Source: Escherichia phage EAWsc9. From it: a DNA stretch of 64,000 nt. The stretch lies in sequence record PQ341120.1. One strand, written 5' to 3'. The notes under the pieces were generated by a model. That model had not been told where the DNA came from. It saw only the letters and a program-made list of their open reading frames with translations, and did not search any database. Of this stretch, positions 3,582 through 44,947 are shown piece after piece (the first letter of the stretch is position 1; every line of letters starts with the position of its first letter). The position numbers were made by a program, and so were the translations under genes.

Positions 3582-4122
3582 ATAAAAAATCCAAATCACC
3601 TTCTTTATCTTTGGCGCTCTTATCAGACCCTGGCGCTTTAACTAAAGAGGATTCGTACTGTGTCATTTTGTCATAGATGTCCTGGATAAATGTTTCATCA
3701 GCCAGAGCCACCATATCGTCGTCTCGTGAATCATACACGTTATGAACGAAGTAGCTATATTTCTTTGCCATTTCTTTACGTTCTTTTTTGATACGCTGAA
3801 CGAAAGCATTGAAGCAAGCCATTGTTATGTAAGCATGTGGATTATCGTATTTTGTTTCGTCGAAGTTATGAAGACCTTTTATTGCGGCCTCAATTCCGTC
3901 TGCAATCATTTCTTGCTTCCAGGATTGGGTATATCCGGAGAAGTTGAAACGTTTGCTAAGACCTTCGGCTATAAGCATAATTGCCAGACCAATAACATCG
4001 TTCTGGCGAATAATTTTATTCGGGTCGGTGTTCGCATTCAGCTTCTGTTTCCACTCCGAAATAGCTTTCAGAAGCTCTTTATTATTTACATAGTTATTCT
4101 TGGTTAATTTAATTTCGTTCAT
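3565..4122 (-). CDS. 55: gp55 late-transcription sigma factor
   Basis: 185 aa; motif block [39 protein letters not shown] matches T4 gp55 from memory; same length as T4 gp55. Confidence 0.9.
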
Positions 4123-4170
4123 ATCGCCTCGCTTAGTATATGAATATTATATCATCCTTAATACAAAGCA

Positions 4171-4437
4171 TTAGCGAAGTAAACAGTAAGCCTGAAAGAC
4201 CTTCTCCATAATTGCCTTAAATTCATGAATGTCAATATAAGGAATAACCTCGGCATCACTAATGAATTCCATCAGGCGGTCATGTTCGTTGCGGTATTGC
4301 CCTTCATTCAGCATACTGATATGGGACTCCCAAGAGCCATACCCTTCTGCGTGCGGGAAGAATGTTATTTTCATAAATTCATCCACCCAAAACGTTCCCA
4401 GGTCCTGGACGGATATCATTGTATGATTGATGTGCAT
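4171..4437 (-). CDS. hypothetical protein
   Basis: 88-aa minus ORF in the 55-nrdH small-gene block. Confidence 0.35.
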   Translation of the reverse strand: MHINHTMISVQDLGTFWVDEFMKITFFPHAEGYGSWESHISMLNEGQYRNEHDRLMEFISDAEVIPYIDIHEFKAIMEKVFQAYCLLR

Positions 4438-15776: not shown

Positions 15777-16301
15777 TTATGCGAGAACCGTCTTTAAACG
15801 CTCTTCAAACTTCTGAAGGAGTACCTGGCGCTCTGCTCTTTGTTTGGTATAGGTTTCAATACGCTCTGAAGTGAGATTGTATTGTTCATTAACTGATTCC
15901 CTCATGAATTCAGGAATCTCTTTACATGCTTTGATTTCATTGAACTTATCAAGCACCGCTTGTTGTTCAGCAATCAGACCATCATAATATTGGATATCTG
16001 ATTTGATGTTTTGTACATCAGATTCAGTAGGCATATTTTTCTTCGCTCTTGTCGCCTGATACTCTGCATTAGTCTCTCTTGACCAGAACAAAGAGCGATT
16101 TTTGTTGGTGTTTTTATACACATCAACAATACCTACTGAATCAACAGTCACAATCCAGTTCCAGGCGTTTTTATAAGTTTGACCACCTGATACTGTAATC
16201 TCACCCGCACAAGCAACATCATTAAAGAACTTGCTTTGTGCTTCTGATTTAAAATTACCATTATTGTAATTAATCAGATTAAAGATTGATTTGGCTTCCA
16301 T
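15777..16301 (-). CDS. hypothetical protein
   Basis: internal ATG at 16301 (MEAKSIFNL...) preceded by CTGGAGAATAAA RBS and early promoter cassette. Confidence 0.4.
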   Translation of the reverse strand: MEAKSIFNLINYNNGNFKSEAQSKFFNDVACAGEITVSGGQTYKNAWNWIVTVDSVGIVDVYKNTNKNRSLFWSRETNAEYQATRAKKNMPTESDVQNIKSDIQYYDGLIAEQQAVLDKFNEIKACKEIPEFMRESVNEQYNLTSERIETYTKQRAERQVLLQKFEERLKTVLA

Positions 16302-16337
16302 TTTATTCTCCAGTATTTGGTAACTCAGTATGGGAAC

Positions 16338-16367
16338 ATTATACGCCCATCCCCATACCATGTACAC
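16338..16367 (-). promoter_or_regulatory. early sigma70-type promoter (-35 GTGTACA, 17 bp, -10 TATAAT) with conserved leader
   Basis: plus attata 16338-16343, tgtacac 16361-16367; followed on mRNA by CCCATACTGAGTTACCAAATA...GGAGAATAAAATG. Confidence 0.5.
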
Positions 16368-16369
16368 AT

Positions 16370-16672
16370 TTAATTAAAAGTTCTTTCAGTATTTTCACCA
16401 CTGAACCAGACGCTCTTAACGGCTTGCTGGGCGCGATGTAGCTGCTCTGCCATATAAACACCAAGGGCCTCAGCCTTACGTGTCCTGTGGGCTTCTGCGG
16501 CGACTATTTGCAACTTATCCATCATGATAAGAGCTTTACATTTCTCCTTCAGAGCATATCGCTTCTTCTCTTCTGGAGTTTTGACCATTCCTCTTAACTT
16601 GTGCATTTTCAACTTAAAATGGTCAGCAGATTTCAGACATGCCTCAATCATGTCAAGTTCATACTTTTTCAT
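16370..16672 (-). CDS. hypothetical protein
   Basis: 100-aa minus ORF. Confidence 0.4.
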   Translation of the reverse strand: MKKYELDMIEACLKSADHFKLKMHKLRGMVKTPEEKKRYALKEKCKALIMMDKLQIVAAEAHRTRKAEALGVYMAEQLHRAQQAVKSVWFSGENTERTFN

Positions 16673-16678
16673 AATTCC

Positions 16679-16885
16679 TCACTTGCGACGACGTTTTGGT
16701 AATGGTTTAGGGAAGAACATTGCTTTACCTGCAGGGGTCAAAGTCACACGCAAAGCATTACCAATACCAAGGGATGCTTTAACCAGACCTTTGGCTTTTA
16801 ACTCACCAAATGCTTGACGTTGTTCAGGGTCACGAGTGTTAACCATCAGACCTTTTTCACCAGCAGCTTTGATTAATTCTAACAT
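16679..16885 (-). CDS. hypothetical basic protein
   Basis: 68 aa; ATG at 16885 behind GGAGAATAAA RBS and promoter cassette. Confidence 0.4.
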   Translation of the reverse strand: MLELIKAAGEKGLMVNTRDPEQRQAFGELKAKGLVKASLGIGNALRVTLTPAGKAMFFPKPLPKRRRK

Positions 16886-16926
16886 TTTATTCTCCGTTTG
16901 TTTATTTGGTAACTCAGTATGAAATC

Positions 16927-16956
16927 ATTATGCATCATGACCATCTGGTTGTACAC
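16927..16956 (-). promoter_or_regulatory. early sigma70-type promoter (-35 GTGTACA, 17 bp, -10 CATAAT) with conserved leader
   Basis: plus attatg 16927-16932, tgtacac 16950-16956. Confidence 0.45.
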
Positions 16957-17002
16957 ATATACTAAATAAAAATACTTAATAAAACCATAAAGGAGAAAGT
17001 TT

Positions 17003-17749
17003 ATGATTTTATCCGGAAGAACTGTTGATGAACTCAATGAAAAAGTCCAGGCTGCCTTGGCTAATAATTGGTATTTGTTTGGTTCTACTATGGTGTTGCC
17101 GAATACCCCTACAGATAGCAAAGAGCGTTTTTTCCAAACTATGTCCAGCTCGGAAACTCAGATACCGGGCCCGCCTGGGCCAAAAGGAGACCCGGGTGTA
17201 CCAGGACCAAAAGGAGACCCAGGCGGGGATGGAAAGTCTTCTTATCAGATATGGCTTGACTTGGGAAATACAGGAACTGTTGATGATTTTTTAACTGATA
17301 CAGCAGGAAAGAGGGAAAAATCCGAGGTGTTTTGGAGTGGTATAAACGTTCTATTAACTAATGGTACGACTTCAAACATAATTAGTGTTTTAAAGGGGAT
17401 TCCACCGACTGCAGGGACTCTATCTCCGTTTTTTAGAACCACTGATGATAAGTTGTGGCCATATAACCAAGACAGAAGCCTAATGTTTAAACTCAACCTT
17501 ATTGGTAATTTTGCAGGAGCCTCGCAAGCTCGAAGTATAACATTAAATTTCGTTGGAACCAACGGAAACACTTATATACAGAATCGTCCGGAAAATGCTA
17601 CAGATATTTTGTCTTTTACAACGTTCTTTAGCATTGATAAAGATGGGGCAATGGCAACCAATGGTACAGCTATAACTGTTATGCCAAATGGCGGCAACTT
17701 TACAATAACCTCTGCATTGTTAGTAGCCGAACAAACAGTGACTTCATAA
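17003..17749 (+). CDS. collagen-like repeat protein with tail-fibre-type motif and C-terminal globular domain
   Basis: 248 aa; AAAGGAG RBS 8 nt upstream of ATG; GPPGPKGDPGVPGPKGDPGGDG Gly-X-Y repeats followed by GKSSYQIWLDLGNTGTVDDFL; only convincing plus-strand gene in the early block. Confidence 0.6.
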   Translation: MILSGRTVDELNEKVQAALANNWYLFGSTMVLPNTPTDSKERFFQTMSSSETQIPGPPGPKGDPGVPGPKGDPGGDGKSSYQIWLDLGNTGTVDDFLTDTAGKREKSEVFWSGINVLLTNGTTSNIISVLKGIPPTAGTLSPFFRTTDDKLWPYNQDRSLMFKLNLIGNFAGASQARSITLNFVGTNGNTYIQNRPENATDILSFTTFFSIDKDGAMATNGTAITVMPNGGNFTITSALLVAEQTVTS

Positions 17750-17755
17750 ACAAAA

Positions 17756-17773
17756 AAGGGCCATCCGGCCCTT
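17756..17773 (-). terminator. intrinsic terminator for minus-strand transcripts
   Basis: AAGGGCC-GGAT-GGCCCTT stem-loop followed by TTTTTTG on the minus strand. Confidence 0.5.
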
Positions 17774-17967
17774 AGATTGCACTCCAAAAATTATGGAATC
17801 TTATAGTATTGATAGCCCAGTTAACAAACCCGCGAGTTTGTTTGGGAGTTGGTTTGCATATGTACTTATTGTTGATTCGTCTGCCAGTTTCCCGACAGAC
17901 TGCTTCGAGATACCAGCGCCGACCTTTATTAGGTCTTCCGTATGATAAGAAGACCTTCATTTCTTCA

Positions 17968-18978
17968 TTAACGATAATAGGAATTGTGGTTGTCAAGATA
18001 TACCTCTTCAACAAACTTGTCCCAGAACTTCATGTCTACCTTATCAGGCATACCATTCTTAGCAGCCTGGATGGCCAGAACTTCAACTAAATCGACAGTA
18101 TCTTCAAGAAGTTCTTGAACTTCTTTAAATGGCAATTCACCAGCTTTAATCAGCTTAATGATAGAGGCTTCACGCAATGGGAATACCAAGTCACCCGTTT
18201 GGTAGATTTCCATCAATTGATACCCTGCACGATAAGCATGGCTCAGTGCTTTCCAATCAATACCTTCGTTAGCTTCTGCTTTACGAGCACGTTCACCATA
18301 TTCGGCGTCGAGTTTATTCAGAGATTGCTTGAGCTCGATTAATGACAGAGTAGTTTGGTATTTACGACCGAGGACAGTATAGAACGTTTGAGGACCTGTT
18401 TTCTCATGGTTATGAAATACCCATTCGCAGAACTCGTTTTCAGGGAGTCTGTGTTTGATATCTTCTACCTTAGTACGTCGTTGCTTAGCGGAACCATCTT
18501 CTTGATAGTCAACCCATTGTTCAGGAATCTGGTTAACAATTTCCAATACACCACGCAGTGCAGCCAATCGAGAACCTTTAACACCATATTTGGAAGCTTG
18601 CTTACGGACGTACCCCAAATAGGCTTTCATGTTAGTTGTATAGAACCGTGAACGGTTGTCCTGAATAAACTTCCATACATCTGGTAAATCGGATTTGACT
18701 ATCAGGTCAGCCGGGGTGTGAATCATATCCAGAGCAACGGTTTCGCCATCAGCCGCCAGTTTAAAGAAATATTTCAGACTATAAAGTTCATGGTCAACAT
18801 CATCTTTTGTATTTTTGGTAGCCGTGTTATTCGTGTTCAGGTTGGTATGGTTCATCGCGGTTCCGAGCAGGATATCTCGCGGATGAGGAACAAAGATTTC
18901 TTTAAAATCGACATCAGATTCCGGGGTACTTGTTCCATAAAGATGGCTACCGAAGTAGCCTTTCATAATAGCTTTCAT
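17968..18978 (-). CDS. Pol-beta-superfamily nucleotidyltransferase-fold protein
   Basis: start at 18978 (ATGA overlap with upstream stop) gives 336 aa; N-terminal GS-x10-SDVDF matches the hG[GS]x9-13Dh[DE]h signature. Confidence 0.5.
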   Translation of the reverse strand: MKAIMKGYFGSHLYGTSTPESDVDFKEIFVPHPRDILLGTAMNHTNLNTNNTATKNTKDDVDHELYSLKYFFKLAADGETVALDMIHTPADLIVKSDLPDVWKFIQDNRSRFYTTNMKAYLGYVRKQASKYGVKGSRLAALRGVLEIVNQIPEQWVDYQEDGSAKQRRTKVEDIKHRLPENEFCEWVFHNHEKTGPQTFYTVLGRKYQTTLSLIELKQSLNKLDAEYGERARKAEANEGIDWKALSHAYRAGYQLMEIYQTGDLVFPLREASIIKLIKAGELPFKEVQELLEDTVDLVEVLAIQAAKNGMPDKVDMKFWDKFVEEVYLDNHNSYYR

Positions 18979-19427
18979 TCTTTGTCCTCGAAGTGGATTA
19001 CTGGGCACATCTTAGATTTACGAGCTTTGATATATTGAATGAAAACATTTTCTTTAATTTCCTTTCCTTCACGTTTAGCTTTAATGCGTTCCCATTCTTT
19101 TTCTTCTTTACGTAAATCGTACCAGGCCCATAAATTCATTAGACCATACATTAGACCAAATGCTACCGTCAGAATAAGAGCCAGTGTAGCTAGTCCTAAA
19201 ATAAACCCTAAGCCTAAACCGACCGGGGTGCTTAATACAAAGAAATGCTCTAATACACCTGCACCCGCGACAGTTAATCCAAAAACCATACTACCGATAA
19301 AAACGGCACAAACAAAACAAGCCCAAACCATTTTCCAGAAATAAGCACACAAAGAGTGTGGACGAGAATGACGGTCATAAAAACGGTCGTGGAAACGAGC
19401 GTGCCATGAGTTTGTATTGATAATCAT
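18975..19427 (-). CDS. hypothetical membrane protein
   Basis: 150 aa; two to three hydrophobic helices followed by a charged tail. Confidence 0.4.
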   Translation of the reverse strand: MIINTNSWHARFHDRFYDRHSRPHSLCAYFWKMVWACFVCAVFIGSMVFGLTVAGAGVLEHFFVLSTPVGLGLGFILGLATLALILTVAFGLMYGLMNLWAWYDLRKEEKEWERIKAKREGKEIKENVFIQYIKARKSKMCPVIHFEDKE

Positions 19428-32862: not shown

Positions 32863-33144
32863 TTAACATTCAGCAGAAGAGGACACCCAACCACCATTTT
32901 CCAGGTCAGTTGTATAGTCATGAGTATTAACAATAGCCCATTCAGGATGACCATGTTCTTCCCAATGAGCAAGGTCAGCTTTCAGGGCGCCAGGAGAATA
33001 ATAGTCACCGCCCATACCGCGAGCAGGGTATATATTAAAATGAGTCTCATATTTGTCTGCAATTTCCTCGGCACGACGAATAGCTTTATGGATGTCATTT
33101 ACTGCGTTAGCCAGTTCTTTATTTTTACGGTAATCATTCATCAT
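32863..33144 (-). CDS. small protein, C-terminal W-V-S-S-S-x-x-C tail family member B
   Basis: 93 aa; ends ...NGGWVSSSAEC; shares EEIADKY segment with member A. Confidence 0.45.
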   Translation of the reverse strand: MMNDYRKNKELANAVNDIHKAIRRAEEIADKYETHFNIYPARGMGGDYYSPGALKADLAHWEEHGHPEWAIVNTHDYTTDLENGGWVSSSAEC

Positions 33145-33153
33145 AACGTTTCC

Positions 33154-33444
33154 TTAGCACATTGCCGAAGAGGAGACCCAAGCACCAACTGTAACGACAC
33201 CGTTTTCAACTTCACCGCCGTTGTTTTCAATTTCATCTTTAAACCACTGGGAGCACTCATAACCGACAGGATAATATGTACGGCCTGAACCATAATCACC
33301 GGTACCGAATTGGATACCATATTCATCTGCGATTTCTTCACAGTGTTTTTCAATTTCAGAGGTCTTATTTAGAAGAGAATAGATGGCTTTTTCTGCAGAT
33401 TTCTCATCATAATACTTGGGGATAGCAATTTCAATTTTATTCAT
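33154..33444 (-). CDS. small protein, C-terminal W-V-S-S-S-x-x-C tail family member A
   Basis: 96 aa; ends ...VGAWVSSSAMC; AAGGAA RBS. Confidence 0.45.
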   Translation of the reverse strand: MNKIEIAIPKYYDEKSAEKAIYSLLNKTSEIEKHCEEIADEYGIQFGTGDYGSGRTYYPVGYECSQWFKDEIENNGGEVENGVVTVGAWVSSSAMC

Positions 33445-35377: not shown

Positions 35378-35683
35378 TTAGATTTTGTTTTCCTGCACAC
35401 CATAATAAAGTTCATCAGACACAATATCCAGGATGCGGCGAACATATTCATCATGGTATTGGCAGTCAAAATCAAATGCAACAGTAGTTTCCGCTTCACG
35501 AGTGAATTTAACTTGCACATTCAGGTGATTAACAACGTTAGTTAATTTATCAGTAAAGAACTCTTTTGCTACCGCCTGTTGGACTTGCACTTTAAACTTG
35601 GTGTTGCGAATCATATTTTCAGCAGATGCGAAATTACCAGTTTTATCAAAGTCAACAAGCGCCAGGTTGATGATGAATTTCAT
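35378..35683 (-). CDS. hypothetical protein
   Basis: 101 aa; ATG at 35683 behind CACTGGAGAATAAA leader cassette. Confidence 0.35.
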   Translation of the reverse strand: MKFIINLALVDFDKTGNFASAENMIRNTKFKVQVQQAVAKEFFTDKLTNVVNHLNVQVKFTREAETTVAFDFDCQYHDEYVRRILDIVSDELYYGVQENKI

Positions 35684-35724
35684 TTTATTCTCCAGTGTTT
35701 TATTTGGTAACTCAGTATGGAATC

Positions 35725-35754
35725 ATTATGCCTTAAAGCAGGGGGCTTGTATAC
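35725..35754 (-). promoter_or_regulatory. early sigma70-type promoter (-35 GTATACA, 17 bp, -10 CATAAT) with conserved leader
   Basis: plus attatg 35725-35730 and tgtatac 35748-35754; -35 in loop of GGGGG/CCCCC hairpin. Confidence 0.45.
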
Positions 35755-35766
35755 CCCCTTTTTGAA

Positions 35767-36234
35767 TTAAATTTCAAATTCTTTGCGGAAGTTGGAAGCA
35801 TAAGACTGAACTGATGCTTTGTTGAATCCAAACTCACGCACAATCATATCAATAACAGCTCTGCGAGCAGCACCATTAGACATATTAACAGTTTTGAACA
35901 TATCATAGCATAAATCTTTGTTGCTCATACCGGAGCGTTTAGGTGCCTTACGTTCAGCTTTTGGTTCAGCTTTTGGTTCAGCTTTTGGTTCAGCTTTAGG
36001 AGTAGGTTTAACTTCTGGTTTAACCTGTCCATCATTCAGACCTTTAAAAATTTTACCTGCCAGAGTTGCCAGTTTAGCAGCTTCGCCACGAGTGATACCA
36101 AATACTGCCGGGTTAAATGAAATACCTTCAGCTGCCAGACGTTTGAAGAACATACGTGCTGCGGATTGTGCTTCAGCTTCAGAAGAGTTGTTTAATGCCA
36201 GCTTAACGTACTTAACCAGTTTTGAAGTTTTCAT
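35767..36234 (-). CDS. hypothetical protein with (PKAE)4 tandem repeat and conserved C-terminal domain
   Basis: 155 aa; PKAEPKAEPKAEPKAE encoded by 12-nt direct repeats; C-terminal DGAARRAVID...VQSYASNFRK shared with ORF 36317..36742. Confidence 0.45.
   Translation of the reverse strand: MKTSKLVKYVKLALNNSSEAEAQSAARMFFKRLAAEGISFNPAVFGITRGEAAKLATLAGKIFKGLNDGQVKPEVKPTPKAEPKAEPKAEPKAERKAPKRSGMSNKDLCYDMFKTVNMSNGAARRAVIDMIVREFGFNKASVQSYASNFRKEFEI
35953..36000 (-). repeat. four tandem copies of a 12-nt coding repeat (plus-strand ttcagcttttgg)
   Basis: direct repeats read directly from sequence; encode P-K-A-E on the minus strand. Confidence 0.8.
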
Positions 36235-36316
36235 TTTATTCTCCAGTGTTTTATTTGGTAACTCAGTATGGGATAATTATACACTATCCCACCTGGAAGT
36301 AAAACACTTTTCTCAA

Positions 36317-36742
36317 TTATTTTTGAGCTTTGCGGAAGTTGGAAGCATATGACTGAACAACAGTCTTTTTGATATCATAGGTGTTAACCAGAACATCAAT
36401 CAGGGCGCGGCGAGCTGCACCATCTGCCATATCAATTTCTGCAAATGCCTGGAAGCAAATGTCACGAGCATTACCAGATTTGGACTGGATTTTTTCTTCT
36501 TTAACTTCTTCAATTGGGAATTCAATCATTTCAGCTTGGATTAATTCAATGATAGATTCTTTTGACTGTTTGGTGTTTACCTTCAGTTCAGAATTAAGGG
36601 ACTTAGCGATGGCAACAATCTGGGTTGAAGTCAGATGAATAAGTGCATCTTCACGAATGCAGATTTCACATACTTCGTCGGCAACCATTTTGTTAGTGAT
36701 GCGGGTAACAGAGAATGCAGAAGTCAGGGTCAGGAAGTTCAT
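36317..36742 (-). CDS. hypothetical protein, paralog of 35767..36234 C-terminal domain
   Basis: ATG at 36742 behind TTTGGAGAAATAAA gives 141 aa; C-terminus DGAARRALIDVLVNTYDIKKTVVQSYASNFRK. Confidence 0.45.
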   Translation of the reverse strand: MNFLTLTSAFSVTRITNKMVADEVCEICIREDALIHLTSTQIVAIAKSLNSELKVNTKQSKESIIELIQAEMIEFPIEEVKEEKIQSKSGNARDICFQAFAEIDMADGAARRALIDVLVNTYDIKKTVVQSYASNFRKAQK

Positions 36743-36793
36743 TTTATTTCTCCAAAGTTTTGTTTGATTCAGTGTGTAACTCAGTATGGAATC

Positions 36794-36823
36794 ATTATGC
36801 ATCCAGTCAATTCGGATGTACAC
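36794..36823 (-). promoter_or_regulatory. early sigma70-type promoter with conserved leader
   Basis: plus attatg 36794-36799 and tgtacac 36817-36823, 17-bp spacer. Confidence 0.45.
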
Positions 36824-37928: not shown

Positions 37929-38131
37929 ATATTTATATTCCATAGTACCGGATGCACCATCCGCTCGGATTTCTCATACTACCGGACGCACCGTCCGCTC
38001 TGGAAAAACTCCGTTAAAAGGGTGCGCCGTTTCAGCTGTGGTAGTAAAGAACCAGAACACAGTAAAACTGTGGGAGGAACTATACTTCAGGGAACTTCAG
38101 TCCGACGACTTACCGGTAGCGACCCGGTTTC

Positions 38132-39417: not shown

Positions 39418-39797
39418 GTTCCTTCATCAACAATAGTATGCGTATTGGCATTAACAATCTGCCACCAGTCAAAACGGTTGGAACCATAACAAGGCTTCTT
39501 CTCGTTTTCTTTAATGATATCACGCAGTTCATCTTCAGTCGCAGCCTTTGCGATTAAGTCAGCATAACCGCCACGAGGATAATAGCTATCACCAGCAAAG
39601 AGCAAAAAGTTTGTTTTGATATTCTTGAATTCTTCAAGAGTAATAACTGTTCCACCCGGTTGAACAATATCTACATAACTATATCCTAATTTCTGTGCTT
39701 CATTTACCGCTTCGAGCAGGGTGTCGTGTGCCCACCCAATTTGACAATCTGGTTTTTCAGATGGGTTTGCCTGATAATCCGCATACACTTTATACAT
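39408..39797 (-). CDS. hypothetical protein
   Basis: ATG at 39797 behind AAAGGTGAG gives 129 aa. Confidence 0.4.
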   Translation of the reverse strand: MYKVYADYQANPSEKPDCQIGWAHDTLLEAVNEAQKLGYSYVDIVQPGGTVITLEEFKNIKTNFLLFAGDSYYPRGGYADLIAKAATEDELRDIIKENEKKPCYGSNRFDWWQIVNANTHTIVDEGTCE

Positions 39798-39798
39798 T

Positions 39799-39984
39799 TT
39801 ACTCACCTTTGGAGATTTTATCCATAACGAAAGAGATTGAACCAATTAAAAATGCAACTACTAAAGAGATTATATTCTCAGAAGTTGAAAGCATATTCAA
39901 CATAAAGCCAGCAAACATGCTAAAACCAAAAGCGGTAACAGCAACAAGGGCAGTAACATTTCTAATTAATTCGCAACGTTTCAT
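39799..39984 (-). CDS. hypothetical small membrane protein
   Basis: 61 aa, two hydrophobic helices. Confidence 0.3.
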   Translation of the reverse strand: MKRCELIRNVTALVAVTAFGFSMFAGFMLNMLSTSENIISLVVAFLIGSISFVMDKISKGE

Positions 39985-40041
39985 TTTATTCTCCTCAGTA
40001 GTTGATGGGATAATTATACGCTATCCCATTCAAAAGTACAC

Positions 40042-40296
40042 TTATTTTTTAGGGATACGATAGTAACGCATCTCAACATCTTTCTGCTTGTGCCACTTTT
40101 TGATAAGGTCTTCAGAACCTTTAATGGTAACGATGTCATAGCGACCATCATGCGATACTTCAGCACTTAACTGCATGAAGTTGTCTAGTGAACGGCGCAA
40201 TTCCTCATTAGAAAAACTACCACGCGGGGAACCAACATAAGCAAACTCAACTTTTGCATCTGCGGCTTCGTTAATAAATTCTTGATAAGTTTTCAT
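40042..40296 (-). CDS. internal-protein-like protein with capsid-targeting sequence
   Basis: 84 aa starting MKTYQEFINEAADAK. Confidence 0.55.
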   Translation of the reverse strand: MKTYQEFINEAADAKVEFAYVGSPRGSFSNEELRRSLDNFMQLSAEVSHDGRYDIVTIKGSEDLIKKWHKQKDVEMRYYRIPKK

Positions 40297-41627: not shown

Positions 41628-42317
<690 letters not shown>

Positions 42318-42318
<1 letters not shown>

Positions 42319-42995
42319 TATATTACCTTATTAATTTTATCAAAAAGTTCTTCGAGTGTGCCATTGTTTTTAATAACAATGTCACTAGCTAGTGGTGGAA
42401 GTCCAGCTTCCGTAATGTGTGTATCGGTAGAATGATTTGCTTCATCGCGTTCTACAAAGATTATTGTAGCACCCATCGCCCGAAGCGAATCAAGTTCGTT
42501 CTTTTGACGAACATCTGGGACAACGTAATATTTATATCCAGAATAGAGGTTGTCAAGATAATCGCACGCAAAAGTTTTAATCCAAAACATGCTGTCGAAC
42601 TCTGTACAAACGATGTCAGTTCCAAGGGTCTGCATGAAACGTCTAACTGTCCAGGGCTCAACATTATTTAGTGTGTGAAATTCAATGATTTTACGAACCA
42701 TATCTGGATTCGGAAGGTCAAGATTGTATTGTTGTTTCAACCATTCAAGAGCATCAACCAGAAGAATATAAGCTTCGGTGTTGTTCATTATCAAGGTTTT
42801 TTCACGGTCATAACCTTGTCCATCAAAATTTTCCAGGGTCAAATTGTGTGGCAGGTCTTGACGAATCCACGCTTTATAAAGCGCTTCTTTAATCGGACCT
42901 GCAAGCTGCCACTTTGTTCCGTTTTGACTAATAACATAATCAGCAGTCGTATCTTTACCACTGCGTTTTTTGCCCACAATCGCAATTAATTTCAT
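42318..42995 (-). CDS. 1: gp1 deoxynucleoside monophosphate kinase
   Basis: 225 aa; P-loop GKKRSGKDT; position between 57A and gene 3. Confidence 0.8.
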
Positions 42996-43591
42996 ACGTT
43001 TCTCATAGATGGATGCATTGACTTAGACCTGATTTCCTGTTGCATTGCTGCATTACTATCAATCTGTGGTCTACCTTCTATTATTATACCATCAATTTCT
43101 ACAGCAAAAGACTTAAAGTTAAAAGTTGCTGTTGCATTGATAGCCGGGTCAGAATCTTCTTTATATGAGTACTGAATCTCTGACAGGTCGGACGGCCATG
43201 CTCCATAGTAATGGATTGACATGACAATTTTGTCCTTGTTGTTATCTAAGATATGAAGCGTGACCGCTTCGGGGCGACCCTTCGGATGCCATGCTTTTGA
43301 TTCGTGTGTGATGTAGTTGTTGAGCGAGAGCATCCATTTATAAATGTCAAGCCATGCTCTTAGGTCTTTGTCACACAGAAAGTTAACAATCAGCGGGTCG
43401 AATTCTATTGTACTACCAGGAAGGCTGGAGCGATTTATACCTTGTGTTCCGCCCGGAACATCCGTCACAGGAATGTGAACTCCAGGGAGGGTAACGTCTT
43501 GAACGTTGAGTTTAAAGGTCTGTGTGAGGTTTGAATCGCTTACCTCTAATATAAAGTTAGTCGTGTTAGTTTGATTATATAAACCTGACAT
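42992..43591 (-). CDS. 3: gp3 tail completion / sheath stabiliser
   Basis: internal ATG at 43591 gives 199 aa and avoids overlap with gp2; assignment by T4 gene order. Confidence 0.65.
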   Translation of the reverse strand: MSGLYNQTNTTNFILEVSDSNLTQTFKLNVQDVTLPGVHIPVTDVPGGTQGINRSSLPGSTIEFDPLIVNFLCDKDLRAWLDIYKWMLSLNNYITHESKAWHPKGRPEAVTLHILDNNKDKIVMSIHYYGAWPSDLSEIQYSYKEDSDPAINATATFNFKSFAVEIDGIIIEGRPQIDSNAAMQQEIRSKSMHPSMRNV

Positions 43592-43676
43592 AATGCACCT
43601 TGTTTGCTTTAAAACAATCAGTGTTATAATGGTTCTAGACCTTTTGTCCTTACCAATAACACTGACCGATAATAGA

Positions 43677-44501
43677 TTATGAATTTCTCCATACTTTCTG
43701 TGAAGAGAATCTTTTGCCTTTCGACATAAATTGTTGCAACGGAAGCATAACAACGTTTGCCCAGTCGCTGGGCTTGATTTCAGTGATAGTACCTTTTATA
43801 TTGCCAGGTATATATGCTTTAATCATCTGGTCAGCCCCTTTAAATCCCTTCACCTTTGACCAATCAATCTTCAGATGAGTCTTGTTCGTAATCGTAGGAG
43901 TATTGGCATATTGCTTAAGAAGTTCCTCAAGGAACTCTTGACGCGCCTTCGGTGGAATATAGTGCAAGTTCAAACCATACATCAAATTGTGCTTACCTAG
44001 CCCAAGATAAATGATTAACGGATATTTGTCCCAGTACGGAAGAGTATCCTTATGCTTTGCATCATAGATATAAGCATAAAGTTTACCTGGTTGAGGTTTA
44101 GCCGTTACGTGGCCACGAACTGATTTCTTAATTGTCTCTGCGAACCATCTGGCGGATTTGGTGTTGCTTGCAGCGCCTTCGTTAGCAATCTTATCTCTTA
44201 TGCTCTTCCTAAAGCTATTCACCATTATCAGCTGGCGTTCAGCCTTCGTAAGTTTACCAGCAGGTTTCTTTTTGAGCTTGGATACTTTATAAGCAGTCTG
44301 AATTCTTGAATGATACCTCGACATGCTTTTGGTAAAGGTCGAATAGTTGATTCCTTTCTCTTCAGCAAACTTCTTCGAGGTCATTCCTTTTTCTTTTGCT
44401 GTATAAAATTCAACCCCTATCTCAACCCATTGTTGTTCGGATTTACTGGGTTTCGGACCTGGTTTATCTGCAGATTCATTGATAAATGTAAAAATACTCA
44501 T
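43677..44501 (-). CDS. 2: gp2 DNA end-protector protein
   Basis: ATG at 44501 gives 274 aa (T4 gp2 length from memory) with ATGA overlap to gp4 stop. Confidence 0.75.
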
Positions 44502-44947
44502 CCTTTCCATCCTAATTTTTTCAGTGAGTTTTCAGTGATTATCCTGAACGTTATACCCATTTTATCTGCGGTAGCTTGCGCAGCTTTCCATTTGTCAGAG
44601 TTAACACTCCAGGTGTACATCTCGTTAATAAATCTCTTTTTACTCGCGGCTGTATTATTAACTGGCTTGGTTGGAGGTCTTGTTTCTTTTAATGGCTTAA
44701 CTTCGAAAAAGAACTGTTGTCCTGTATCAAACTTAACCCAGAAATCCATATAATATCTGCGCTTTTTCCCTTCAGCATTGCAGAAGTATGGAATAATCAC
44801 AGTCTCAGAGCCCCATTGAACAACGTTCGGATGGTTGTCGAGCCATCTCATCAACCAAGCCTCCCAGCTTGACCGGTATTGTATTTTCTTCCAGTCGCCC
44901 TTATATTTTTCTATATTAGTGGGCTTAAATTTCCCGGAGTATGCCAT
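44498..44947 (-). CDS. 4: gp4 head completion protein
   Basis: 149 aa; [18 protein letters not shown]...; position and size as T4 gp4. Confidence 0.8.

Follow-up and report, generated by a model that had tools for sequence, protein, structure and literature searches.

The window analysed here, a stretch of 64,000 nucleotides (nt) from Escherichia phage EAWsc9 (PQ341120.1), carries on its plus strand a gene for a protein in which a DUF1737-like domain, a short collagen-like stalk, a helical module and a knob of the kind found on the tail needle of phage Sf6 follow one another. A first-pass annotation of the DNA had described it as a collagen-like gene with a tail-fibre motif, lying on the opposite strand inside an early-gene block. 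The present analysis confirmed that the gene is real and accessory and that its architecture is well defined, and it led to a different view of the destination of the product. The likeliest reading, which we regard as an even prospect, is that the protein is a trimeric accessory fibre of the virion, made late and probably carried on the capsid. The gene and its parts are:

17003-17749, plus strand: coding sequence of 248 residues, comprising in order the DUF1737-like domain, the collagen-like stalk, the helical module and the Sf6-type knob
16989-16995, plus strand: Shine-Dalgarno sequence AAAGGAG, separated from the ATG by 7 nt and kept in the orthologues of phages C6 and AnYang
17003-17152, plus strand: DUF1737-like beta-alpha-beta-beta domain (residues 1-50), the proposed capsid anchor
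17168-17239, plus strand: collagen-like stalk of eight Gly-X-Y triplets (residues 56-79), GPPGPKGDPGVPGPKGDPGGDGKS
17231-17293, plus strand: GKSSYQIWLDLGNTGTVDDFL module (residues 77-97), predicted to form two short helices and adjoining collagen runs in phage fibre-like proteins
17297-17734, plus strand: Sf6-type tail needle knob (residues 99-244), with the L-glutamate-binding residues E108, K163, S210 and D212 conserved

The window belongs to a T4-like Gaprivervirus and is ~99% identical to phages P8, RZ and DK-13. A megablast search with 16600-18200 matched 76 phage records, the best being Yersinia phage vB_YenM_P8 (99.4%), followed by Escherichia phages DK-13 and vB_EcoM_RZ (99%), the last of which is classified in Gaprivervirus, Tevenvirinae, Straboviridae. 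The open reading frame (ORF) and its ribosome-binding sequence are present as the first-pass annotation had described them, and the ORF is intact in eight independently isolated phages with protein identities of 98-99.6%. Conservation at the protein level reaches phages whose DNA is only ~67% identical or less, and the ratio of nonsynonymous to synonymous substitution rates (dN/dS) is 0.06-0.29 where dS is unsaturated and can be estimated, indicating purifying selection; from the few differences to RZ it is ~0.13. The minus-strand ORFs overlapping the gene are shorter than the 248-residue ORF. Neither a signal peptide nor a membrane segment was seen on direct reading of the protein sequence, and no helix of more than 13 residues is predicted in the full-length AlphaFold2 (AF2) model.

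The C-terminal part of the protein matches the Pfam family PF16532 over residues 99-244, with 112.3 bits against a cut-off of 27, and no other Pfam match at E <= 1 was obtained for the protein. The same part is assigned to phrog_1030 (E 3e-67) and retrieves the Sf6 and HS1 needle knobs from the Protein Data Bank (PDB) with phmmer (3RWN, E 1.3e-31; 4K6B, E ~1e-31). In Foldseek, the AF2 model of the knob, the confidence of which varies (block means of the predicted local distance difference test, pLDDT, of 43-90), superposes on 3RWN with an E value of 1.2e-14, a template modelling (TM) score of 0.84 on the target and a root mean square deviation of 2.6 Å. Further structural neighbours are the knob of the phi812 central spike, PRD1 P5, Bacillus ExsFA, the TNF-like lectins Bc2L-C and PLTL, and C1q-like domains. 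The C-terminal domain of ~150 residues marked out by the first-pass annotation is thus real and of a known family, and, because of these neighbours, its comparison with C1q/TNF-like modules was right at the level of the fold.

Residues E108, K163, S210 and D212 align with E146, K200, S248 and D250 of the Sf6 protein, the first three being invariant and D212 nearly so in the family alignment (A1). In Sf6 these residues contact a buried L-glutamate and are conserved in all non-P22 knob homologues, among which homologues in T4-like phages were noted with unknown function (Leavitt et al. 2013, PMC3741392). By analogy, three chains would associate through the knob into a trimer. A tail needle protein of the P22/Sf6 type (gp26/gp9) was considered and rejected, because the homology to gp9 begins at residue 99, neither the portal plug nor the coiled-coil shaft is present, and T4-type tails have a gp5/PAAR spike. 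The gene also lies outside any P22-like podovirus tail module, its host being a Gaprivervirus and its place antisense between an ORF102c-like gene and nrdC.11. The database label 'tail needle knob' names a domain and not the role of the protein.

The stalk consists of eight uninterrupted Gly-X-Y triplets, with proline at 8 of the 16 X/Y positions. Its score against PF01391 (collagen triple helix), 17.6 bits, falls below the cut-off of 27.2 for the sole reason that the run is short. The first-pass annotation had traced the triplets to an internal direct repeat of the DNA, and this is seen as a 27-nt tandem duplication filling 17165-17218 (17165-17191 and 17192-17218, 78% identity), which encodes PGPPGPKGD and PGVPGPKGD. 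The stalk is variable in length, with no triplets in the orthologues of RB43 and Carvaje and ~15 in that of fHe-Yen9-01. Between stalk and knob, the AF2 model places two helices (residues 80-86 and 93-101). A homology search found the pattern G(K)SAYQIWLDLGNTG(S/T)ExDF(I/L) straight after Gly-X-Y runs in ~20 otherwise unrelated collagen-like proteins, often several times in one protein; the first-pass annotation was therefore correct in stating that GKSSYQIWLDLGNTGTVDDFL follows collagen repeats in phage fibre proteins. No Pfam match at E <= 1 placed the GKSSYQIW module in Pf2/PF03406 or PF22337.

Residues 1-50, passed over in the first reading, appear to constitute a divergent DUF1737 domain. 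The N termini of four orthologues score 13.7-20.7 bits against PF08410 over ~45 of its 53 positions, all below the Pfam cut-off of 24, and that of a close relative (P0037) scores above it, at 26.2 bits. A profile built from the fibre family alone and searched against 1.84 billion sequences retrieved five bona fide DUF1737 proteins (26-63 bits). The AF2 model of the N-terminal region (pLDDT 83) comprises a strand at residues 2-5, a helix at 8-20 and strands at 30-32 and 42-48, and its nearest neighbours in BFVD after the orthologues are proteins named DUF1737, with query TM scores (TMq) of 0.69-0.84. A search of PDB sequences with the N-terminal profile gave chance matches only (E >= 0.2), and a fold search of the PDB with the model gave nothing at E <= 0.001 and no DUF1737 structure. 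The predicted fold fits the one helix on a three-stranded antiparallel sheet described for residues 2-57 of phi24B gp84, and hhalign aligns the region with residues 9-50 of gp84 (E 7e-5). According to a cryo-EM preprint (10.64898/2026.04.10.717836), the DUF1737 domain of gp84 in the T=9 podovirus phi24B is a capsid-binding domain, which forms a hexamer plugging the pore at hexon centres and anchors through Tyr42; the functional esterase portion of gp84 is reportedly released from the capsid by cleavage. A single-domain DUF1737 protein (P0042) was also found, the genomic context of which gave no signal for head or tail.

The three-part architecture recurs in full-length orthologues from the Dhakaviruses AnYang (69% identity) and C6 (83% identity). 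Others are found in the Tegunavirus fHe-Yen9-01, the Kanagawaviruses PEi20 and PEi26 and many Pseudotevenviruses (RB43, Miller, CfP1 and others), as well as in Carvaje-type phages of Klebsiella with genomes of ~57-60 kb. In five Straboviridae genera the gene lies antisense to its neighbours, in or beside the gap between nrdC.10 and nrdC.11, a placement established by named neighbours in AnYang, C6, PEi20 and RB43 and by gene size in fHe-Yen9-01. The gene is therefore an old resident of this slot, patchily retained, and not a one-off acquisition. It evolves faster than its surroundings, with 67% DNA identity to AnYang against 87% for the flanking nrdC.11. The C6 gene (L008 2501-3256) is a mosaic: its 5' ~310 nt are 100% AnYang-type (L003 3001-3759) apart from a few differences in the collagen-coding repeats, and its knob-coding 3' part together with the downstream terminator is of the type found in the window (93-98% against 17003-17749), the crossover falling in the conserved AGKRxKSEVFW segment at the boundary of stalk and knob. 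Faster evolution, exchange of the knob and a collagen run of variable length are behaviour typical of surface proteins.

The gene occupies a variable cassette between two minus-strand genes:

16957-17767, no strand: variable cassette; VR7, a relative without the gene, is homologous up to 16956 and again from 17768
16679-16885, minus strand: left neighbour, a 68-residue ORF of unknown function (phrog_6001), RB69 ORF102c-like and next to nrdC.9
17968-19008, minus strand: right neighbour, the nrdC.11 nucleotidyltransferase (phrog_388)

In VR7 the slot measures ~400 bp and holds two small minus-strand ORFs in place of the fibre gene. The gene is present in 8 of the 76 records that match the flanks by megablast and absent from most Gapriverviruses, a distribution that supports its dispensability. 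The sharp borders between presence and absence at 16956/17768 and the terminator hairpin would suit a moron-type cassette, which should also have its own promoter; a plus-strand promoter is not demonstrable in the lineage of the window. The first-pass annotation had proposed a moron and a comparison of the slot among related phages. That comparison bears out a self-contained accessory cassette missing from most close relatives, and a recent one-off acquisition is contradicted by the presence of the gene in five genera. The window contains no second copy of the gene or of the knob, the remaining matches to the query there being short repeats. A second place matched in related records was considered as a paralogue and rejected; it is probably short repeated promoter-region sequence as well, because such repeats are the only other matches to the query in the window. 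One sequence of ~50 nt at 16883-16933, spanning the start and upstream region of the left neighbour, recurs four times in the window (16299-16342, 35681-35731, 36232-36283 and 36740-36823; 77-90% identity), and the left border of the cassette at 16956 is ~20 nt away from this copy. Genomes of the T4 type contain repeated early-promoter cassettes, which are thought to mediate gene shuffling, and the ~50-nt repeat is presumably of this kind.

Two elements flanking the coding sequence bear on its transcription:

16961-16974, plus strand: ACTAAATAAAAATA, two overlapping late-promoter boxes with one core mismatch each (ACTAAATA at 16961-16968 and TAAAAATA at 16967-16974)
17756-17773, no strand: G+C-rich hairpin that the gene has in common with the convergent nrdC.11 transcript, with a U-tract that is strong on the minus strand and weak on the plus strand

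For the T4-type late promoter, the reference sequence was TATAAATA, with ATAAATA as its core, occupying -13 to -6 relative to the start of transcription. Four of the six orthologues examined (C6, AnYang, fHe-Yen9-01 and PEi20) have an exact copy of TATAAATA 22-25 nt 5' of their ATG, and RB43 has CATAAATA. The first-pass annotation had noted that no TATAAATA box precedes the gene in the window, which is correct but peculiar to this lineage: where the orthologues have TATAAATA or CATAAATA, the window has ACTAAATAAAAATA, ending 28 nt before the ATG, as do all four carriers compared upstream of the gene (RZ, ECML-359, pEC-M719-6WT.2 and TH40). No plus-strand promoter of the sigma-70 type was found upstream of the gene. 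The sequence at 16957-16968 reads TATACTAAATA, from which removal of the central CTA yields a perfect TATAAATA; a 3-bp insertion could have damaged an ancestral late promoter there, or the resemblance could be a coincidence. All T4-like orthologues examined have a G+C-rich inverted repeat just 3' of the stop codon, and they appear from these signals to be monocistronic late cassettes. Late expression would also be expected in this phage, at a level that is uncertain because the promoter box is degenerate in its lineage. The minus-strand terminator reported at 17756-17773 is a real hairpin with a good U-tract on that strand only. The minus-strand promoter reported at 16955-16927 does match 9 of 12 consensus positions, but matches in this region are no more frequent than in shuffled sequence (4 against 4.9 expected).

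The gene was described in the first-pass annotation as the only convincing plus-strand gene in 1-44947, and this holds. The plus-strand ORFs at 2561-2755, 32920-33288, 39761-40063 and 42076-42435 were treated as spurious because they have no PHROG match and overlap minus-strand ORFs (an overlap checked directly for at least 32920-33288); the portion of the RZ annotation consulted lists only minus-strand genes at the corresponding places. The term early-gene block is inexact, because late structural genes stand at the right end of the minus-strand block: gp3 (tail-tube), gp2 (DNA end protector) and gp4 (head closure, 44498-44947) occupy the ORFs at 42992-44947. Perfect TATAAATA boxes also lie on the minus strand at 37937, 41238, 42536 and 44983. 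Strand is therefore no clean proxy for early or late expression in the window. Near-identical genomes are annotated inconsistently at this locus. ECML-359 (L015) leaves the gene unannotated, and pEC-M719-6WT.2 (L016) has extra small overlapping minus-strand ORFs and names its nrdC.11 homologue 'thioredoxin' in the region matching 16600-18170 of the window.

The placement of related genes in other phages points to the head. Wherever knob or DUF1737 genes were found within morphogenesis modules, the module was that of the head. In Aeromonas phage L9-6 (Biquartavirus, L012 2566-3432), the gene between gene 23 (major capsid protein) and gene 24 (vertex protein) encodes 288 residues that include a Phage_fiber_rpt repeat and end in an Sf6-type knob; the N terminus is different and lacks DUF1737. 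In Escherichia phage AV124 (Mydovirus), the genes for the major capsid protein and an Inh-like protein are followed directly by one (L010 2823-3962) for a 379-residue protein with collagen and Sf6-type knob. The next ORF downstream (3975-4271, 98 residues) matches PF11133, the head fibre family of phi29, at the C terminus of that family (E 5e-11). The 379-residue product is annotated as 'tail fiber protein', probably in error for a head fibre. In Carvajevirus the gene directly follows that for TerL, with overlapping stop and start codons. On a Carvaje-like metagenomic contig (L021 7001-8563), the same slot directly after TerL encodes a 520-residue protein (P0038) with two tandem DUF1737-like domains followed by IQWR-type repeats and an unrelated C-terminal domain, so that the anchor appears to have been kept and the tip exchanged. 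A knob homologue, gp119 of the Kuttervirus Sajous1, was detected in CsCl-purified virions, and in SPP1 a collagen-like trimer, gp12, sits on hexon centres (PMC7602432). The only structural evidence on DUF1737 is of capsid binding, and knob genes elsewhere belong to head modules; a head fibre is therefore likelier than the tail fibre suggested at first, and the location in the virion is probably the head. Two other knob homologues were recorded. The Ackermannviridae homologue in CBA120 (L011 2956-3474), a counterpart of which mass spectrometry finds in the virion of a related phage, is essentially knob-only (172 residues, ~14 of them before the domain), and its gene is surrounded by hypothetical genes immediately 3' of a tRNA cluster. 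P0010, a knob protein that differs at the N terminus, is encoded at the end of a T7-like contig, in a context that gave no signal for head or tail.

Several observations weigh against a late capsid fibre. The N terminus encoded in the window itself scores only 17.6 bits against PF08410, below the cut-off; the loop equivalent to the Tyr42 loop of gp84 is three residues longer and has no aromatic residue; and confidence in the AF2 model of the whole protein is mediocre (pLDDT 64.5). Capsid binding by DUF1737 is known from a single unreviewed preprint, for hexamers on a T=9 podovirus. The gene lies outside the head module in the T4-like phages. RZ encodes a Hoc-like protein as well. In T4, Hoc occupies the hexon centre, and the presumed docking site may therefore be taken. 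A consensus late promoter is lacking, with neither TATAAATA nor its ATAAATA core upstream of the gene, and TAAAAATA is an octamer at chance frequency, with seven copies on one strand of the window and five on the other where 4.3 would be expected; the box is therefore without statistical weight and was rejected as evidence for a late promoter. The literature searched by carrier (fHe-Yen9-01, Carvaje, GuL6) and by Pfam name yielded no expression or virion data for any full-length orthologue.

Three other explanations of the gene were weighed. An accessory fibre attached by its N terminus to the tail, baseplate or neck, acting as an auxiliary receptor-binding protein, is what the database name and the 'tail-fibre motif' of the first-pass annotation imply, the knob being the distal tip of a tail organelle in P22-like phages. 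The collagen region and GKSAYQIW module match PHROG tail-fibre families and are found as well in collagen-like tail-fibre proteins of prophages (PMC3368898), and the exchanged knob of C6 resembles the shuffling of receptor-binding proteins. We nevertheless hold a tail fibre to be rather unlikely. The protein lacks the N-terminal plug and coiled-coil shaft of a needle and appears to begin with DUF1737, no tail-attachment domain was detected in it, and T4-type tails end in a gp5/gp5.4 spike, for which RZ has a PAAR gene, and not in a needle; the head-module placement of the related genes also speaks against it.

A soluble trimeric TNF-like or lectin-like late protein, freed at lysis or acting in or on the infected cell, would be analogous to the NanS-p esterase domains of Shiga toxin (Stx) phages, which end up free, as reported for the esterase that is cleaved off the phi24B capsid. 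The gene is moreover missing from most Gapriverviruses and sits among non-structural accessory genes. Such a non-virion protein is nonetheless unlikely, given that signal peptide and membrane segment are absent from the sequence, that a capsid-anchor domain, a rigid spacer and a trimeric tip together make the architecture of a displayed fibre, and that the knob-only homologue of Kuttervirus was found in purified virions. The third possibility, a silent or decaying cassette in which the ORF is intact and transcription has largely or wholly ceased after degeneration of the late promoter, draws on the missing ATAAATA core with the shared ACTAAATAAAAATA, on the lack of a sigma-70-type promoter and on the weak plus-strand U-tract. 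It is quite unlikely in view of the intact ORF in eight phages, the dN/dS relative to RZ and the retention of a strong Shine-Dalgarno sequence. T4-type late promoters also tolerate some variation: their position -13 is variable, and Aeh1 uses CTAAATA, which is present upstream of the gene in the window (PMC1524935).

Under the capsid-fibre reading, the gene would be transcribed as a monocistronic unit from a gp55-type late promoter just upstream, as the orthologues suggest, ending at the hairpin 3' of the stop codon. The knob would form a TNF-like trimer burying three L-glutamates at its subunit interfaces and set the register of the eight Gly-X-Y triplets, giving a collagen triple helix of ~7 nm capped by the two-helix module. 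Three N-terminal DUF1737 domains could then dock on the capsid surface, as those of phi24B gp84 do at hexon centres, and the knob would in consequence project ~12-15 nm from the head. There it may act as a weak, exchangeable adhesin for glycans or other ligands of the cell surface or environment, raising the rate of host encounter. A role in host encounter has likewise been proposed for Hoc, T5 pb10, phi29 gp8.5 and SPP1 gp12. More tentatively, and at less than even likelihood, some T4-like phages might possess a second optional head-fibre system beside Hoc, in which DUF1737 plugs attach trimers to the centres of gp23 hexons or to gp24 vertices, the collagen run serves as an adjustable spacer, and an L-glutamate-loaded TNF-like knob, swapped between genera, retargets capsid-mediated adhesion. 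One knob module would then serve both as the tail tip of podoviruses and as the head-fibre tip of myoviruses and siphoviruses.

The gene family has already been annotated; the head-fibre reading appears to be new, following as it does from the DUF1737 finding of 2026 (10.64898/2026.04.10.717836). If the protein is a capsid fibre, the proposed anchoring role of DUF1737 extends from Stx podoviruses to T4-type myoviruses and Carvaje-type phages (vB_KpnS, siphoviruses), a function is found for the knob homologues of phages other than the P22-like ones that Leavitt et al. (2013) recorded, and 'tail needle knob' is the wrong database label for what is a head protein. Anchor, adjustable spacer and exchangeable trimeric tip would also make up a natural modular display scaffold on T4-like heads, and the fibre may have gone unnoticed as a factor in how therapeutic coliphages adsorb or adhere to mucus. 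Were the product instead a fibre of the tail or a protein that is not part of the virion, this would be a routine accessory gene.

Among known systems, the needle knob of Sf6 gp9 and HS1 (3RWN, 4K6B; PF16532) is homologous to the C-terminal 146 residues, with 38-40% identity in structural alignment, the same TNF-like jelly roll and all four residues around the buried L-glutamate kept. The carrier differs, DUF1737 and collagen standing in place of the portal-plug domain and trimeric coiled-coil shaft, and the phage is a T4-type myovirus without a needle. Like phi24B gp84 and the NanS-p esterases (PF08410), the protein opens with a small beta-alpha-beta-beta domain and is an accessory phage product of several domains, presumably made late. 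Its sequence is divergent, however, with no equivalent of Tyr42, it carries a collagen-stalked knob and not an esterase, and it is expected to be a trimer, whereas gp84 forms six independent chains.

The head fibres SPP1 gp12 and phi29 gp8.5 are trimeric, dispensable capsid fibres with a proposed role in host adhesion, and gp12 is collagen-like. They have no sequence relationship to the protein and use other anchors and tips, and their binding to the capsid is demonstrated, whereas that of the protein is proposed. PRD1 P5, like Bacillus BclA/ExsFA and C1q, has the overall design of the protein, in which a short Gly-X-Y stalk joins the anchor at the N terminus to a trimeric knob of the TNF/C1q type at the C terminus; the similarity is at the level of the fold only (7-15% identity), and P5 belongs to a phage that contains a membrane, where it stands on the five-fold vertices. 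T4 Hoc differs in being a monomeric string of Ig-like domains with a C-terminal anchor, encoded beside inh near genes 23 and 24. Like Hoc, the protein would be an optional component displayed on the surface of a T4-type head, a place demonstrated for Hoc and proposed here, with a presumed role in adhesion, and the two would share the hexon centre if DUF1737 binds in the manner of phi24B.

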